This document shows positions 32,301 to 39,157 of a DNA stretch of 64,000 nucleotides, piece after piece; position 1 is the first letter of the stretch, and every line of letters starts with the position of its first letter. The DNA is from Puniceicoccales bacterium (GTDB taxonomy: Bacteria; Verrucomicrobiota; Verrucomicrobiia; Opitutales; LL51): NCBI GenBank assembly GCA_031257405.1, contig JAIROS010000017.1, forward strand, positions 34,046 to 98,045, read 5' to 3'. The translations under genes were made by a program, and so were the position numbers. Under the pieces are notes generated by a model. It ran no database searches. It saw only the letters and a list, made by a program, of their open reading frames with translations, and had not been told where the DNA came from.

Positions 32301-33368
32301 TTAAAACTTAGCGTCGAATTGTAAATCCGGAATGTTCCTAAAAAAAATACGCATATTTTCAGCGCGAATAATATCGCGTTCCTCCGGCGATAAATTCTTA
32401 TCGTACAAAACAACCAAATTCCCCGGCTGCGACTCTACCATGTAACGGTCAATTCCGGCGCGATTTTGCCCGTCAATGAGACCGCAGTCCGCCGCCAAAC
32501 GCATCCACGCTAACATCTCAAACGCCTCCTCGCTCTCCAGCGTGTAACAGGAACATAGCACACCGTAAATGCGGCCAATTTTGTTCAAAAATTGCGTGCG
32601 ACTATGCTTCAAAATCCCTTCGCGGGCCGATTTTTCCTGGTCAATAATCGTCTTAATCACGTGCTCCAAACGCTGAATCTCATCCGTTTCGCAAATGCCC
32701 AGCGTCTGCTGATTCGATATCTGATACATGTACCCCCGCGCCTGTGACCCCTCCCCGTGTACGCCGCGAACGACGATCCCAATCTGCTGGACCGCGTCGA
32801 TGAGGTGCTGAATCTGTTCCGCCATCCCTAATCCGGGGAGATGCAGCATAATGGAAGCGCGCATCCCCGTCCCCACATTACTGGGACACGCCGTCAAATA
32901 CCCCATCGGCTGGGAAAAAGCGTAGTAACCGTCGTCGATGGCGTCGTCGATGTCATTAATTTTTTTCCAAATGTCGCGCAATTGTAATCCGCTGCCGATC
33001 ACCTGTATCCGCAAATGGTCCTCCTCGTTAATCATGATCGACGCCAACGCCCTATCACTGCAAATCACGCCCGCCCCCACTTTCCTCTCCAGCAACTCCT
33101 TGCTAATCACACGCCGCTCCTGGAGGGCCAATTGTTCGGGTTTTTTGAGTTCCGACAGATCGATAAAAATTTTAAAATCTTTTAACTTTTGTACGTAATG
33201 TTTGGCGAAATTGAGGATTTCGGTACGTTCGCTATCCTTTGCGTTGGAAGGGAATCGGAATTGGGAAAAATTGCGCGCCAGCCGCACGCGGGAACTCACC
33301 ACAATCGGCTGACTATGCTCCTCGAAGCGCTTGCCGTACTCCAAAAGCAACTTTTTAACCGTTCTCAT
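32301..33368 (-). CDS. mcsB: Protein arginine kinase (ATP:guanido phosphotransferase)
   Basis: NEEDHLRIQ, CPSNVGTGMRASIMLHLPGL and HGEGS motifs. Confidence 0.9.
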   Translation of the reverse strand: MRTVKKLLLEYGKRFEEHSQPIVVSSRVRLARNFSQFRFPSNAKDSERTEILNFAKHYVQKLKDFKIFIDLSELKKPEQLALQERRVISKELLERKVGAGVICSDRALASIMINEEDHLRIQVIGSGLQLRDIWKKINDIDDAIDDGYYAFSQPMGYLTACPSNVGTGMRASIMLHLPGLGMAEQIQHLIDAVQQIGIVVRGVHGEGSQARGYMYQISNQQTLGICETDEIQRLEHVIKTIIDQEKSAREGILKHSRTQFLNKIGRIYGVLCSCYTLESEEAFEMLAWMRLAADCGLIDGQNRAGIDRYMVESQPGNLVVLYDKNLSPEERDIIRAENMRIFFRNIPDLQFDAKF

Positions 33369-33855
33369 GCCTTAGCGAGCGCAACGCATCCCTAATCCTC
33401 GCCGCCTCCTCGAAACGCTCCCCCTCTATCGCCAGCCGCAACTTTTCTTCGAGGGACTCCCGTGTCAACGTTTTTTTTGCGTGGACGGTAAAGCATTTGG
33501 GTTGTTTACCGATGTGATCCAAATTTTTTTGCATATTTTCGATAAGGGGCAGGAGTTTTTCCCGCAACGATTCGTAGCACTGGGGACACCCCAAATTGCC
33601 TGTTTTTTTAAAAAGTTCCACGGTATAGCCACAATATTCGCAGCAATCGTGTGTTGTTATGGCTGGGTTAAGGTCGCCGAAAAGGGCGGTGCCGATATTT
33701 TTAGTCACGGAAAATGGCATCACATTACTGGTCAACACCCCGTAACTGCGCGCGCACGCCTCGCATAAATTGATTGTTTGTTTTATGCTATGGACGATTT
33801 GTTCGATGTGGACCGCCGCTGGTTTTCCGCAAATACTACACTTGAGTGATTCCAT
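33355..33855 (-). CDS. mcsA: McsA-like activator (zinc-finger pairs + UVR domain)
   Basis: CSICGK...CEAC and CEYCG...CPQC Cys pairs, C-terminal UVR motif LEEKLRLAIEGERFEEAARIRDAL. Overlaps mcsB by 14 nt. Start moved to MESLKCSICG (33855). Confidence 0.85.
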   Translation of the reverse strand: MESLKCSICGKPAAVHIEQIVHSIKQTINLCEACARSYGVLTSNVMPFSVTKNIGTALFGDLNPAITTHDCCEYCGYTVELFKKTGNLGCPQCYESLREKLLPLIENMQKNLDHIGKQPKCFTVHAKKTLTRESLEEKLRLAIEGERFEEAARIRDALRSLRHENG

Positions 33856-34075
33856 AAACAAAAATTTTACCCCATCGCCATCCCGCCGTCGACCGTGACC
33901 ACCGCGCCCGTTATGTAACTCGCCCCAGCAGAACACGAATGGGTAATTTGTTCGATGTGGACCGCCGCCGGTTTCCCGCAAATACTACACTTGAGTGATT
34001 CCATAAACAAAAATTTTACCCCATCGCCATCCCGCCATCGACCGTGACCACCGCGCCCGTTATGTAACTCGCCCC
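33797..34075. repeat. Tandem duplication (period 149 bp) spanning the mcsA 5' end, the intergenic region and the fabG 3' end
   Basis: 130-bp copies at 33797-33926 and 33946-34075 differ at about 3 positions. They create a pseudo fabG 3' end and a pseudo mcsA start (ATG complement at 34002-34004). Confidence 0.95.
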
Positions 34076-34762
34076 TTCGGAGCATAAAAAATCCACGGCG
34101 TGGGCGATATCTTCGGGAGTCCCCATGCGCTTCATGGGAATCAATTTTTTGGTTTCTTCAATAATTTTTTCGGACAGCGCGGCGGTCATATCGCTTTCGA
34201 TGAACCCGGGCGCCACTACGTTGACGCAAATCCCGCGGGAAGCGACCTCCTTCGCCACCGACCTGCTAAAACCAATCATCCCCGCCTTCGCCGCAGCATA
34301 ATTCGCTTGCCCAAAATTACCAGTTTTACCAATAATTGAAGAAATATTTACAATTCTGCCCCAGCGATTCTGTACCATCCCCCGCAAAAGATGTTTGGTC
34401 CAGTGAAAACAGCTGCTCAAATTCGTCCCAATCACATCCTCCCAATCCTCCGTACTCATCCGCATCAGCAACGCATCGCGCGTAATCCCAGCATTATTGA
34501 CCAAAATATCAATCGCACCGTGCTTCGCCAGTAAATCCCCACAAATTAACTCCACTGCCCCCCCGTCGGAAACATCCACGGAAATCGCTCCCGCTTCTCC
34601 ACCACCGGCAATAATCTCCTGGGCAATTTGCTCGCAATTCTTCGAACGACTAACACAAATCACGTAAATCGACCGCCGCGCCAATTTTTTCGCAATCGCC
34701 GCCCCTAAACCACGGCCAGCCCCCGTCACTAACGCAACCCGCTTCTCTCCGACTCCTACCAC
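34016..34762 (-). CDS. fabG: 3-oxoacyl-[ACP] reductase
   Basis: KRVALVTGAGRGLGAAIA (TGxxxGxG), NNAG, SSIIGKTGNFGQANYAAAKAG (YxxxK), ITGAVVTVDGGMAMG. GTG start at 34762 is proposed (249 aa) because the longer ORF runs through palindromic element B. Confidence 0.9.
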   Translation of the reverse strand: MVGVGEKRVALVTGAGRGLGAAIAKKLARRSIYVICVSRSKNCEQIAQEIIAGGGEAGAISVDVSDGGAVELICGDLLAKHGAIDILVNNAGITRDALLMRMSTEDWEDVIGTNLSSCFHWTKHLLRGMVQNRWGRIVNISSIIGKTGNFGQANYAAAKAGMIGFSRSVAKEVASRGICVNVVAPGFIESDMTAALSEKIIEETKKLIPMKRMGTPEDIAHAVDFLCSEGASYITGAVVTVDGGMAMG

Positions 34763-34861
34763 AAACCCATTATGGCCGCATCCCCCCCTAACGTCAATAG
34801 GGATTTTTAAAATAATTTTTTCACCACCTATAGAAATAATTATATCGGGCTTCCGCCCCCT

Positions 34862-34939
34862 CCCAGGCCCCGCCAGGAGTCGTAGACTCCTTGGCCTGCT
34901 TCGCAGGCCCCGCGGCGTAGCCGCGGGGCGGGGCCTGGG
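34862..34939. repeat. GC-rich nested palindrome, element B (78 nt, cloverleaf-shaped)
   Basis: An 11-bp perfect closing stem (34862-34872 with 34929-34939) encloses three hairpins with GTA, TTC and GTA triloops. 34905-34929 is identical to 3529-3553. Confidence 0.9.
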
Positions 34940-35023
34940 CTTAGGTCTGCACAAAAATTCACCTCCTGTGAAGGGATTAAAAAAAAGATATCTTCTTTTC
35001 CGGCGGGCTTTATTTTTACATTT

Positions 35024-37813
35024 CTATCGTCGTCGACAAATCCGTGCGCGTTGCCTCCTTCGTTCCGCTTTTTCGATCTCGGATTCATCCCCATCTTCTG
35101 CGCCTCTGCGGAATATTTTACCCCAATTTAACTTTATTTTCTCAGGTTTATAGGTCGCCTTTTCGAAGGAAGGCCTCTCGTAGTCGTTAGTTAAAATAAA
35201 TTCATCCGGTTTCAGCGTCGGTTCTCCCGCCAAATTGCCCTCCGTAAAGAAGCGACTCAGCTGCGCCGTCTGGGTATCATCGTGGTGGATAATGGTCGGC
35301 GTGATGATATAAATCCGCTCCGTCACACTATTGCCGCGGTTACTCATTTTAAACAGATGGCCGATGAGTGGGATATCTTTCAGGATGGGGATACCGGCGG
35401 AACTGACTTCGTGTATTTCTTTGAAGGAGCCGCCGATAAATAGACTCTGCCCCTCGAAAACCGATGCCTCCGTATTGACCGTCCGCGTCGTGGTACCCGG
35501 ACCACTGGAGCCCTGACGCGGATTAGTAGTAAACCCACCGTCTTGGACCTCAATTAACAATTTAATTTTTGGCATACCGTTGGCATCAAATTCCCCCATA
35601 ATAATATGGGGGACCACCGTTAATTTAGTGGAGACCGTCACGTCGAATAGCCCGCCCGCCTTTGCTCCTTGGGTTTCCACGTAGGCGGTTTCGGACGTAT
35701 CGATCACGGCGCCGATATTATCCAAAGTAATGACCGACGAGCGGATTAGCGTCTGTCCATTGCCGACCTCCTCCAGGATATTCAGCGTTTCGGACATGGA
35801 ATAATTTTTAAATAATTTATCAAAATTCATAACCAAACTCGCCTCTGTGGCATCCAAAAAATTAAAGGAAATGCGCTTCGATTTTTTTTCCGCGTCCGCT
35901 GCTGTGGTACCAGCGCCTCCAGCGGCTACCGCCATACGCCGATTAGCTTCCAATTTGGAACGTATTTTTAGGGAACCGGATTTGGTGATATCCACTACGG
36001 CGATCTCGATTTTCAGCGCATCCCTGGAGACGTCCAGTTGCTGAATAATGCTCTCAATAAAGGGCATATCCTGGCGCTTGGCTTTGACAATAACCGCATT
36101 TAAACGCGTATCAAAGGTAACAAAAATATCGCTCAAATTGAGGGGATTTTTTTCCCCTCCCTGGGGGGCCATTTTACCCACGTCTTTGGCTTCGCTGCTA
36201 TCTTTTTTAGCTTTTTCGGCGTGGTAGGCGGTCCCGGGTATGGCTTTTGCCGCAGTCGCTCCACCGGCCTTCGAATTGTCGATCTGTAACCCAATGCTGC
36301 TCTCGCCGACAGGCCCCGTTATCGCTCCCACCATCTGCTGTAGCATCGTCGCAACACCCGGAATATTCATGTTCCCACCGCGGTAATTGACTATCATATC
36401 GTAGGCCCAAGCGTGTTTCAGCGGAAAAGAACGAATGTCGTACACATTGCTGACGCGTTCGATTACAATTTTTTTAGAAAGTTCTTCTATGAGGGACATG
36501 AGTTTAGGGGGGCCGCTCACCACTAAAATACCGGCGGTTTCCAGGGGTCTGAAGGTCACATTGGAGCTCAAAAATCCGAGCTGCGAAATGACCCTAACCA
36601 GGGTACGCATCTCATCGCGATTCATCTGGTAGACCGACGACGACACTTCGTCGCTCTTGTAAACATACATCATACTGCCGTCAAAAAACCAAACTAATCC
36701 GTAGGCATTGATGATATCTTTCCAGAATTGGTGGGGGGTAACGTTACTAAATTTTCCATTGACGACGTCGGCGACTTTATCGCTCACGATGACGTCCATC
36801 GACTGCATCACACAGAAATTGCGGATTAATTCTTTCAGCTCCTGATTTTTAGCGAAGTGGTAATATTCTGCGGTTTTCCAGGGCAGACGGTCAGCGGGGT
36901 CGCCTTCGGTAAGGGCCATTGAAGTGACTATTTCGACGGAACTCAGGTCGATGAGGGGGGTTATTGAATCGCCCATGACTTTACGGGTTAGCGGAATTTC
37001 GCTAGATTTTTCCTGGGCATTTGCTATTGGCGCCGCTGGCGATACAGCCGCCGCTGGCAATGGTCCTGAAATATTTTCATTTAGTGACGATCCCGAAATA
37101 TTTGTTACTGGCGCTGCAGGCAATATAGCTACCGCAGGCAACGATTCCGGAGCATTTGTTACTGGCGTTGCAGGCAATACAGCCGACGCAGGCGGGGGTC
37201 CTGAAACATTTTCATTTAGCAATGGTCCCGGAGTATTTCCATTTGGCAACGATCCCGAAATATTTGTTATTGGCGCTGCAGGCAATACAGCCGCCGCAGG
37301 CAATGGTTCCGAAATATTTGTTATTGGCAATGGTCCTGAAATATTTGTTACTGAATCCACTGGCAATACAGCTGCCGCTGGCAATGGTTCCGGAATATCT
37401 GTTACAGCTGCCGCAGGCAATACAGCCGCCGCTGGCAATGGTCCCGGAGTATTTCCATTTGGCAACGATCCCGAAATATTTGTTATTGGCGCTGCTGGCG
37501 ATATAGCCGACGCTGGCAATGATCCCGGAGTATCCCCAGCCGGAACCACTCCCGACGCTGAACCCTTGGCCCCCATAGCCCTCTTGGGCCCATCAATAAT
37601 GTATATGTCCTTCCTGTTCTTCGGTATCACTCCCCCCGCCTCCAATCCACTCGATACACCCGCTAACGCTCCCCCAGTAGCCGTAGCCCCCCTCTCGCTA
37701 CCCTCCGCCCTGTGAATTAAATCCGAATCACGGCTCAATAATGCGCAAGAAAATGATAATGCCGATAGGCCACAAACTGTGTAAAAAATCCCCTTCATCT
37801 CCCTAAAACCCAA
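35024..37813 (-). CDS. sctC: Type III secretion system secretin with ~300-aa repeat-rich N-terminal extension
   Basis: N0-like YGLVWFFDGSMMYVYKSDE. SctC hallmark FPLKHAWAYDMIVNYRGGNMNIPGVATMLQQMV. Secretin core ending GIPILKDIPLIGHLFKMSNRGNSVTERIYIITPTII. Confidence 0.85.
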   Translation of the reverse strand: MGFREMKGIFYTVCGLSALSFSCALLSRDSDLIHRAEGSERGATATGGALAGVSSGLEAGGVIPKNRKDIYIIDGPKRAMGAKGSASGVVPAGDTPGSLPASAISPAAPITNISGSLPNGNTPGPLPAAAVLPAAAVTDIPEPLPAAAVLPVDSVTNISGPLPITNISEPLPAAAVLPAAPITNISGSLPNGNTPGPLLNENVSGPPPASAVLPATPVTNAPESLPAVAILPAAPVTNISGSSLNENISGPLPAAAVSPAAPIANAQEKSSEIPLTRKVMGDSITPLIDLSSVEIVTSMALTEGDPADRLPWKTAEYYHFAKNQELKELIRNFCVMQSMDVIVSDKVADVVNGKFSNVTPHQFWKDIINAYGLVWFFDGSMMYVYKSDEVSSSVYQMNRDEMRTLVRVISQLGFLSSNVTFRPLETAGILVVSGPPKLMSLIEELSKKIVIERVSNVYDIRSFPLKHAWAYDMIVNYRGGNMNIPGVATMLQQMVGAITGPVGESSIGLQIDNSKAGGATAAKAIPGTAYHAEKAKKDSSEAKDVGKMAPQGGEKNPLNLSDIFVTFDTRLNAVIVKAKRQDMPFIESIIQQLDVSRDALKIEIAVVDITKSGSLKIRSKLEANRRMAVAAGGAGTTAADAEKKSKRISFNFLDATEASLVMNFDKLFKNYSMSETLNILEEVGNGQTLIRSSVITLDNIGAVIDTSETAYVETQGAKAGGLFDVTVSTKLTVVPHIIMGEFDANGMPKIKLLIEVQDGGFTTNPRQGSSGPGTTTRTVNTEASVFEGQSLFIGGSFKEIHEVSSAGIPILKDIPLIGHLFKMSNRGNSVTERIYIITPTIIHHDDTQTAQLSRFFTEGNLAGEPTLKPDEFILTNDYERPSFEKATYKPEKIKLNWGKIFRRGAEDGDESEIEKAERRRQRARICRRR
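37010..37540 (-). repeat. In-frame imperfect tandem repeats inside sctC (Pro/Ala-rich; higher-order period 216 bp)
   Basis: AAPITNISGSLPNGNTPGPL occurs at aa 107-126 and 179-198. Interspersed (E/G)PLPAAAVLPAAP(I/V)TNIS units span aa ~93-266. Confidence 0.9.
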
Positions 37814-38231
37814 AAATCGTTAAATTGGAACCGCGAGGTACCTCCAGCGAATAGTCGTACGCATCCGCCCAAAATGCTAAATTTGTCACAAAAGATTCCG
37901 CTTCCGCAAATAGGTTATCGGCGAATAACTCCGCCAAAGATTTTTTGCGAAAAAGACACAGCCGATTTGTTTCGCTTTCGATGGCAATCGTATCGTCGGT
38001 ATCGGCAATTCTCCCAAAATTCCAACGCAATATATTTTTCAATTTTCCCAAATCATTTTCCGTAATTTCCTCCGTAAAATACCCGAAAAAAGTGAGGAAT
38101 CGGCTATCCAAATGCACCATCTTTAACTCCAAACGCCCGTCTATGACCACCTCACAAACCGAATGACTGGGGTCGTGATCTTCTATGCGAAAATAGCGCG
38201 CCAAGATTTCGATTGCTTTCACCCATTCCAT
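37803..38231 (-). CDS. CesT/SycE-like type III secretion chaperone (candidate)
   Basis: 142 aa from MEWVKAIE, acidic. Core HSVCEVVIDGRLELKMVHLDSRFLTFFGYF resembles class I T3S chaperones. The stop overlaps the sctC start by 11 nt. The ORF could extend to 38327. Confidence 0.6.
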   Translation of the reverse strand: MEWVKAIEILARYFRIEDHDPSHSVCEVVIDGRLELKMVHLDSRFLTFFGYFTEEITENDLGKLKNILRWNFGRIADTDDTIAIESETNRLCLFRKKSLAELFADNLFAEAESFVTNLAFWADAYDYSLEVPRGSNLTIFGF

Positions 38232-38356
38232 CAATAATTCGTTTTTATCAAAAAGTTTTGGGCCTGCAAGCCAGAAAGTGTATTGAAAAAAAATTTCAGT
38301 AAAAAATATGAGAAAAATTGTTATCATCCTCCATCCGGCGGCGATAGATACTCCCC

Positions 38357-39157
38357 ATGTTCGAGAAAATTAGTAGTAAAAACAATGAGAAAATTAAGTT
38401 TATCGACAAGCTCAAGAAGTCATCGCACCGGAAAAAATTCGGTCTATTTCCCGTCGAAGGATTTCGAGAAATTTCCCGCGCCCACAGTAGGCAATTCCTA
38501 GCGGAACTCATCTTTTGCGAAGAATATTTCGCGGGACGAGACGATTTTTACGCTTTGGTCGAGCGGCTTGGGCGGGAGAATGTAAAAATCACGCAGGTCA
38601 CGCCCGATGTATACCGGAAGATCTCCCTCTGCGAAAATGGCAGCGGATTGATCGCCCTTGCGCGCGCGAAAAATGTGGCCATCGATGCTTGCACGCCGCC
38701 CGCAAACGGACTTTTTGTTGCGACGGAAAATATCGAAAAACCGAGTAATTTAGGGGCCATTATTCGGACAGCGGAATCGGCTGGCGTCGACGGCGTAATC
38801 GTCCTCGGCCGCTCCACGGAAATCTTTAACCCGCACGTCATCCGCAATTCCCAGGGCGCCGTTTTTTTCACGCCCATTTACCACGCTTCAACGGAGGAAT
38901 TCCTAGCATTTATGCGCCGAAATCAGCTATCGCTCTACGTCACTTCGCCCGGTGCGCAAAGGCTATATTTTGAGGAAGATTTTCGCGGCGGGACGATTAT
39001 TCTTGTGGGTTCGGAGAAGGGGGGGGTATCTGATTTTTGGTTGCGGGAGAGACGGACGATTCGGATTCCCCAGAATGGTTTTTCGGATTCGCTGAACGTC
39101 TCCGTTGCGACGGCTATTGTGTTATACGAGTGTGTTCGCCAGCGCCTAGCGAAATAA
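38357..39157 (+). CDS. SpoU/TrmH-family RNA 2'-O-methyltransferase
   Basis: NLGAIIRTAESAGVDGVIV, LVGSEKGGVS and IPQNGFSDSLNVSVATAIVLYE motifs. Confidence 0.85.
   Translation: MFEKISSKNNEKIKFIDKLKKSSHRKKFGLFPVEGFREISRAHSRQFLAELIFCEEYFAGRDDFYALVERLGRENVKITQVTPDVYRKISLCENGSGLIALARAKNVAIDACTPPANGLFVATENIEKPSNLGAIIRTAESAGVDGVIVLGRSTEIFNPHVIRNSQGAVFFTPIYHASTEEFLAFMRRNQLSLYVTSPGAQRLYFEEDFRGGTIILVGSEKGGVSDFWLRERRTIRIPQNGFSDSLNVSVATAIVLYECVRQRLAK

Follow-up and report, generated by a model that had tools for sequence, protein, structure and literature searches.

A chaperone–secretin gene pair in a Puniceicoccales genome, probably a detached piece of a dispersed Ysc-like type III secretion system

The window analysed here, i.e., a stretch of 64,000 nucleotides from Puniceicoccales bacterium (GenBank assembly GCA_031257405.1, contig JAIROS010000017.1, positions 34,046 to 98,045), contains two adjacent type III secretion system (T3SS) genes on its minus strand: sctC (35024..37798), which encodes the secretin of the outer-membrane ring (924 aa), and, directly upstream of it, a gene (37803..38231) for a predicted class I T3S chaperone of the CesT family (142 aa, isoelectric point (pI) 4.7), situated at the position of yscB. 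Besides this pair, no further injectisome gene was found within the window. We read the pair, with a probability of about 75%, as a detached piece of a complete Ysc-like T3SS in a genome-reduced member of the Puniceicoccales, with a YscB-like chaperone and an only incidental adjacency to the genes mcsA and mcsB (together mcsAB).

A preliminary description of this DNA, made from its letters alone, had taken the larger gene for an SctC secretin, and profile searches as well as phylogeny bear this out. The protein reaches 307.4 bits against the SctC model TIGR02516 (cut-off 238.45), about three times its scores for GspD (106) and PilQ (93), and exceeds the cut-offs of the Pfam families Secretin (PF00263), Secretin_N (PF03958), and T3S_SPI-1_N0 (PF21304). 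Its best matches among solved structures are InvG (114 bits) and MxiD (110 bits), as compared to around 55 bits for GspD. In trees built from the hits of an exhaustive HMMER search with the secretin core, which do not contain YscC and CdsC as named references (30 representatives of these hits yielded only the taxon labels Puniceicoccales, Opitutales, Desulfovibrionaceae, and Bilophila), the SctC of the window is placed inside a large SctC radiation, separated with 100% support from proteins annotated as GspD or PilQ and likewise from the two other secretins of the same genome; the branching of the SctC tree mirrors first the genus, then the family, and then the order. Given the bit scores and this split, an identity as GspD or PilQ was rejected, and a pseudogene was rejected on account of the intact open reading frame (ORF) and the conserved invariant residues. 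The two other secretins, both very divergent, are encoded on contig C26 (ORF of 979 aa) and contig C12 (59717-60754; ORF of 808 aa). The former groups with GspD-annotated proteins (91% support), the latter stays in the non-SctC outgroup at a position that is not settled, and both fit the pseudopilin genes named in the preliminary description.

The folded core of the secretin (35279..36901, minus strand), delimited by an AlphaFold2 model with a predicted local distance difference test (pLDDT) of 70-92 and by the Pfam limits, comprises the domains N0 and N1 (residues ~300-490), N3 (~556-626), and the secretin beta-barrel (~668-837), and is predicted to carry two disordered insertions at residues 492-554 and 621-661. 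The C-terminal tail (35027..35278, minus strand) is modelled as disordered and ends in a basic helix (...RRRQRARICRRR); the basic C-terminus is conserved across relatives, and the tail may correspond to an S-domain-like tail.

Residues ~20-295, which follow the signal peptide and precede the N0 domain, form an extension rich in Pro, Ala, Ser, and Gly (36914..37741, minus strand). It contains imperfect tandem repeats on a unit of 27 nt (9 aa) at positions 37032-37534, the periods of which are 27, 54, 81, 108, 135, and 162 nt according to Tandem Repeats Finder, and with a pLDDT of 31-40 and no secondary structure in the AlphaFold2 model, it is predicted to be fully disordered. Close relatives possess an extension of 190-290 aa that is variable in both length and sequence, and more distant SctC proteins of the order possess none; the region, tandemly repeated and predicted to be disordered, is particular to this clade. 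SctC-bearing frames are open over 1,691 aa in one relative (G274, C1:51279-52103) and over 1,102 aa in another (G260), such that the size of the extension differs widely between lineages.

Concerning the start of sctC, the frame is open further 5' up to a TTG at 37813 (ORF 35024-37813, minus strand). Since a signal peptide of the form MKxIFYTVxGLS is kept at the far N-terminus of the SctC relatives, the start is placed at the ATG at 37798; the recorded product (P0007) of 650 aa, in which the signal peptide is missing, is too short. The long ORF of the chaperone gene spans 37803-38327 (minus strand), and a comparison of 11 homologues identifies M33, encoded by the ATG at 38231 (GTG in two relatives), as the conserved start. 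The 32 hydrophobic residues preceding it (window positions 38232-38327) are unconserved and probably reflect a T-rich divergent promoter region rather than coding sequence. The two genes are separated by a gap of 4 nt: after the stop codon TAG of the chaperone gene (37805-37803) come GGAG and the ATG of sctC, an arrangement kept in relatives; with the alternative TTG start, sctC would overlap the chaperone gene by 11 nt. A tight, i.e., translational, coupling of chaperone and secretin is therefore plausible. The pair as such is conserved in all of the 11 related loci that reach upstream and in three further genomes.

The preliminary description had called the smaller protein CesT-like, an assignment with which the profile searches and the predicted fold agree. 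A profile of 11 orthologues, searched against the PDB, matched CesT-type chaperones exclusively, and the Pfam family CesT (PF05932) matches each of the 11 family members at relaxed E-values (best E 6.9e-6); the homologues upstream of sctC in two relatives with clustered T3SS genes, G200 and G238, pass this family with 33.3 and 65.9 bits, respectively. The AlphaFold2 model (pLDDT 82.7) exhibits an alpha-beta3-alpha-beta2-alpha fold, for which nearly all top hits of Foldseek in the PDB are class I T3S chaperones (ExsC, VecA, SrcA, CesT, SycT, SicP, SycE, SycH, SigE, and SpcU) at a template modelling score (TM-score) of 0.6-0.75. As judged from this model and the family profiles, the 142-aa protein is a class I (CesT-type) T3S chaperone.

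From the lack of other injectisome genes in the window it had been concluded that the T3SS genes must be scattered, and the rest of the system was indeed found on contigs C7, C10, C13, and C20 of the same assembly (822 kb in 30 contigs, 89% complete). SctV, SctN, SctJ, SctU, SctR, and SctD exceed curated cut-offs, and Pfam adds SctS, T, K, L, O, Q, E, F, and G as well as TyeA. The full injectisome is distributed over at least six loci: sctS-T-U and, at a second locus of the same contig, sctJ-K-L-N-O on C7; a tetratricopeptide repeat (TPR) chaperone gene, sctV, a 465-aa gene without assigned identity, and a giant ORF on C10; sctQ-R on C20; an sctW-like gene (C13:10752-11816), tyeA (45 bits), and a sycN-like gene (C13:10034-10423; E 0.001, below the cut-off), divergent from sctD-E-F-G, on C13; and the chaperone–sctC pair in the window. 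The giant ORF (C10:8806-25368) exceeds 5,520 aa, lies two genes downstream of sctV after the 465-aa gene, and runs off the contig end. A gene for a small ankyrin-repeat protein (C7:8914-9450) is situated directly downstream of sctU.

As the assembly is fragmented and incomplete, the scattering might be an assembly artefact, or sctC might be a decaying remnant. However, each T3SS locus has housekeeping genes as neighbours on its own contig, and in a closed genome of 878 kb from the same genus, sctV (101 kb), sctN (261 kb), sctU (528 kb), and sctC (772 kb) are 160-270 kb apart, by which the artefact is contradicted and was rejected; the intact sctC with its invariant residues and the presence of SctC in 14 of 16 relatives speak against decay. 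The probability left to this explanation as a whole is negligible. A tblastn search of 12 related loci detected no further T3SS gene up to a distance of 8 kb from sctC. The 16 species just mentioned represent the family, and their genomes measure 0.6-1.1 Mb; in the remainder of the order, SctC occurs mostly in small genomes, and across the class it was found in 12 of the 251 sampled genomes. Two closed verrucomicrobial genomes of 0.9 Mb from another family (G030, G040) contain an SctC over the cut-off, with no other T3SS gene detected within 9 kb.

The related loci stem from metagenome-assembled genomes (MAGs) of Puniceicoccales, the names of which resemble those of termite-gut bins. Verrucomicrobial endosymbionts of termite-gut protists with genomes of ~1 Mb have been described as the 'Nucleococcus cluster' (PMC8204192), to which the genome studied here probably belongs as a symbiont of such protists.

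The origin of the pair becomes apparent from relatives with clustered T3SS genes. G200 (5.8 Mb, same class) possesses one collinear cluster, W-TyeA-SycN-X-Y-V-[145-aa ORF]-C-D-E-F-G-H-J-K-L-N-O-P, in which V, C, D, G, J, K, L, N, O, TyeA, and the Y-like TPR gene are backed by sequence and the other labels by gene order and size. The 145-aa ORF of the CesT family between sctV and sctC aligns to the chaperone family of the window (hhalign, 90%, E 1.4e-6). In G238 (1.8 Mb, same order), sctV is followed by translocator-sized genes, a 189-aa CesT protein that matches the chaperone of the window by BLAST (E 4.9e-7), and then sctC. Since the chaperones directly upstream of sctC in these clustered loci are homologous to that of the window, the chaperone–sctC pair is ancestral. 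In Yersinia and Pseudomonas, yscB-yscC (pscB-pscC) stand at the head of the yscA-L operon, and the gatekeeper and export genes are arranged as yopN-tyeA-sycN-yscX-yscY-yscV. Judged by gene position and homology, the pair of the window is a piece of a Ysc-like gene order, with the chaperone sitting where yscB sits. Among solved structures, the best match of SctV from the same genome is YscV (807 bits at full length), and the C-domain of this SctV shares 54% identity with that of YscV and 43% with that of chlamydial CdsV (YscV versus CdsV: 41%). By gene content, gene order, and SctV similarity, the system thus appears Ysc-like.

What the chaperone serves is suggested by its gene position together with the presence of SycN, TyeA, and SctW: most likely, it is a YscB-type partner of the SycN-like chaperone of the gatekeeper. 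Several results weigh against the Ysc-like reading and the YscB role. The chaperone scores 14.9 bits on Pfam CesT and hence remains below the gathering score of 22; ExsC, VecA, SrcA, and CesT rank above 1xkp_B of the YopN-SycN-YscB complex in the Foldseek search, in which chain B was the only one of 1XKP to match, at rank 39; and no YscB model is among the NCBIfam hits of the chaperone at E-values up to 10. Furthermore, the LcrE/SctW match on C13 is weak (24 bits, below the cut-off), and a tree of seven SctV C-domain sequences, with YscV, CdsV, SsaV, and EscV derived from the PDB, did not separate the branching of the Verrucomicrobia relative to YscV and CdsV.

These structural rankings, along with the CesT-family hits of the PDB profile search, would also suit a class IB chaperone for several cargoes, of the kind of Spa15, InvB, and CesT, or a regulatory chaperone like ExsC, which would be encoded next to a structural gene since it has more than one effector to serve or links secretion with gene expression. 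No effector-like gene adjoins the chaperone gene, whereas neighbours without assigned identity are found beside the three other CesT-family genes of the genome. Yet in the collinear clusters of both G200 and G238, the chaperone is situated where yscB would be, a SycN-like chaperone without an obvious partner is encoded beside TyeA and SctW, and no ExsA- or ExsD-like regulator was seen, though no systematic search for one was made; a multi-cargo or regulatory role is possible and, on this evidence, rather unlikely. The three other CesT-family genes (C29:18621-19124, minus; C8:8376-8858, plus; C2:2853-3338, minus) score 58-80 bits, and two of them are followed by same-strand ORFs of ~200-430 aa without assigned identity, which makes these two candidate chaperone–effector pairs.

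If the chaperone is of the YscB type and the pair a detached piece of the Ysc-like system, the following sequence of events can be proposed. SctC would be exported by Sec and form the outer-membrane ring of the injectisome, and the 142-aa chaperone, descended from the gene directly upstream of sctC in a contiguous ancestral cluster (the yscB/pscB position), would remain in the cytoplasm, form a pair with the SycN-like chaperone from C13, and keep the gatekeeper (SctW/YopN-like together with TyeA) in a secretion-ready state. Genome reduction and rearrangement would have split the T3SS cluster into at least six loci, while the tight junction would keep the chaperone co-expressed with sctC; the same process would have brought the pair beside fabG-mcsA-mcsB at the base of one genus.

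The surroundings of the pair are as follows. Upstream of the chaperone gene, a divergent intergenic region (38232..38356) leads to a gene of the SpoU/TrmH methyltransferase family (38357-39157, plus strand), which is kept in most relatives. Downstream, a spacer of ~260 nt (34763..35023) separates sctC from fabG and contains a GC-rich palindrome of 78 nt (34862-34939) resembling repetitive extragenic palindromic (REP) elements and a promoter-like site, TTGACG-17-CATAAT (34797-34769), that agrees with the consensus at 10 of 12 positions. If translated, the palindrome yields the spurious Arg/Pro-rich N-terminus of a long fabG ORF, the true start of fabG probably being the GTG at 34762. The genes fabG (34016-34762; 321 bits against TIGR01830), mcsA (33355-33855; 90 bits against the McsA model), and mcsB (32301-33368; 354 bits against the McsB model) are all situated on the minus strand and are, as a block (32301..34762), housekeeping neighbours outside the secretion module.

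The neighbourhood to mcsAB had led the preliminary description to propose a synteny block conserved between Chlamydia and the rest of the Planctomycetes-Verrucomicrobia-Chlamydiae (PVC) group. The chlamydial facts that it named are correct according to the literature: In C. trachomatis, CT672 (sctQ), CT673 (pkn5), CT674 (yscC/cdsC), CT675 (karG/mcsB), and CT676 (mcsA) are consecutive, CdsC measures 921 aa with a unique N-terminal domain of ~250 residues, and the chlamydial T3SS genes are scattered over several loci. The proposed block itself did not hold up. In the genus of the window, mcsAB is found within ~4 kb of the chaperone–sctC pair at 7 of 9 informative loci, five of which (that of the window and those of four genomes of the same genus) show the direct order sctC-fabG-mcsA-mcsB; as for the exceptions in the genus, one genome has an insert of 2 kb, one carries the block on the other side, and two are without it. 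By contrast, mcsAB was absent from the vicinity of sctC in the sister genus (two informative loci) and in 17 further SctC-bearing genomes of Verrucomicrobiae, and in the 9 kb around sctC, the clustered relatives G200, G238, and G125 possess T3SS genes and lack mcsAB. McsB occurs throughout the phylum, and the free-living Cerasicoccus arenae exhibits fabZ-mcsA-mcsB-clpC with no T3SS gene nearby. As the adjacency is limited to one genus within Verrucomicrobiae and fabG, a palindrome, and a promoter-like site lie in between, these findings do not support a PVC synteny block that is conserved.

The consecutive sctQ-pkn5-cdsC-mcsB-mcsA of C. trachomatis, for which a chance match was roughly estimated at a few per cent, and the combination of scattered T3SS genes and an N-terminally extended secretin in both lineages might nevertheless suggest that a block of sctC and the arginine kinase was inherited from the PVC ancestor or is kept by a functional connection of McsAB/ClpC proteolysis with the injectisome in PVC bacteria that live inside cells. 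In addition to the restricted distribution within Verrucomicrobiae and the elements intervening between sctC and mcsAB, the Cerasicoccus arrangement, the separate TyeA, and the Ysc-like gene order argue against this, as does the literature, according to which the chlamydial secretin CdsC is similar to those of type II secretion systems (T2SS) and of separate origin (Abby and Rocha 2012; Nans et al. 2015). Moreover, the numbering of CT675 and CT676 suggests that mcsAB converges on cdsC in Chlamydia, whereas both run in the same direction here. We consider such an inherited or selected block highly improbable; the adjacency of sctC and mcsAB looks coincidental, a product of genome shrinkage without a functional link.

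The pair and its dispersed system are of interest beyond the locus. In a family of Verrucomicrobia whose genomes measure 0.6-1.1 Mb, a complete Ysc-like injectisome is retained as its gene cluster disintegrates, which constitutes an independent parallel to Chlamydia and a useful case for asking which gene links outlast genome reduction; that between the chaperone gene and sctC is one of them. The finding further suggests that presumed protist symbionts use type III secretion as a tool on their hosts, and it corrects the attractive but unsupported idea of a deep PVC synteny. As a long shot, two host-associated PVC lineages, of which the present clade probably lives inside its hosts, might have independently gained an SctC N-terminal extension of ~250-280 residues and an mcsAB neighbour; if this were more than chance, the extension could serve as a functional spacer or as a surface element for life inside eukaryotic cells, and the assembly of the injectisome might be under the control of arginine phosphorylation and ClpC proteolysis.

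Among the known systems, the organization found here is comparable in many respects to that of the Ysc/Psc injectisome: a class I chaperone gene is situated directly upstream of the secretin gene, a separate TyeA gene lies beside the SycN-like chaperone and SctW-like genes, a TPR chaperone gene abuts sctV upstream, and the orders D-E-F-G and J-K-L-N-O are the same, with the whole collinear order present in the relative G200. Needle chaperones of the YscE and YscG types, YscK, and YscO add to this likeness. Despite the general similarity, there are clear differences: The genes are split up into at least six loci that lie amid housekeeping genes, a disordered repeat region extends the secretin by ~275 residues, the chaperone is without a match to YscB models, and a giant ORF of >5,500 aa follows after sctV.

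The chaperone shares with the class I chaperones of the CesT/SycE type (PF05932) the size, the acidic pI, the predicted alpha-beta3-alpha-beta2-alpha fold, and the family hits across its orthologues, whereas it is very divergent (14.9 bits) and has no adjacent cargo gene.

With Chlamydia, the genome has in common that T3SS genes are scattered in the small genome of a host-dependent PVC bacterium, that the secretin of ~920 aa bears an N-terminal extension of 250-280 residues, and that mcsAB lies beside the secretin gene. Here, however, fabG lies in between, and the adjacency is peculiar to a single genus. The T3SS loci are broken at other places, J-K-L-N-O being contiguous here, whereas the chlamydial order is J-K-L-R-S-T and D...N-O-P-Q-pkn5-C, and TyeA is encoded separately, whereas it is fused in chlamydial CopN. 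The extension of the SctC studied here is predicted to be a disordered low-complexity repeat and is similar to the N-terminal domain of CdsC in length only. CdsC, which was compared from papers only, is reported to be T2SS-like, whereas the SctC of the window possesses an N0 domain of the T3S type and matches InvG and MxiD above GspD among solved structures. In its T3SS gene order and its separate TyeA, the system is Ysc-like and not chlamydial.

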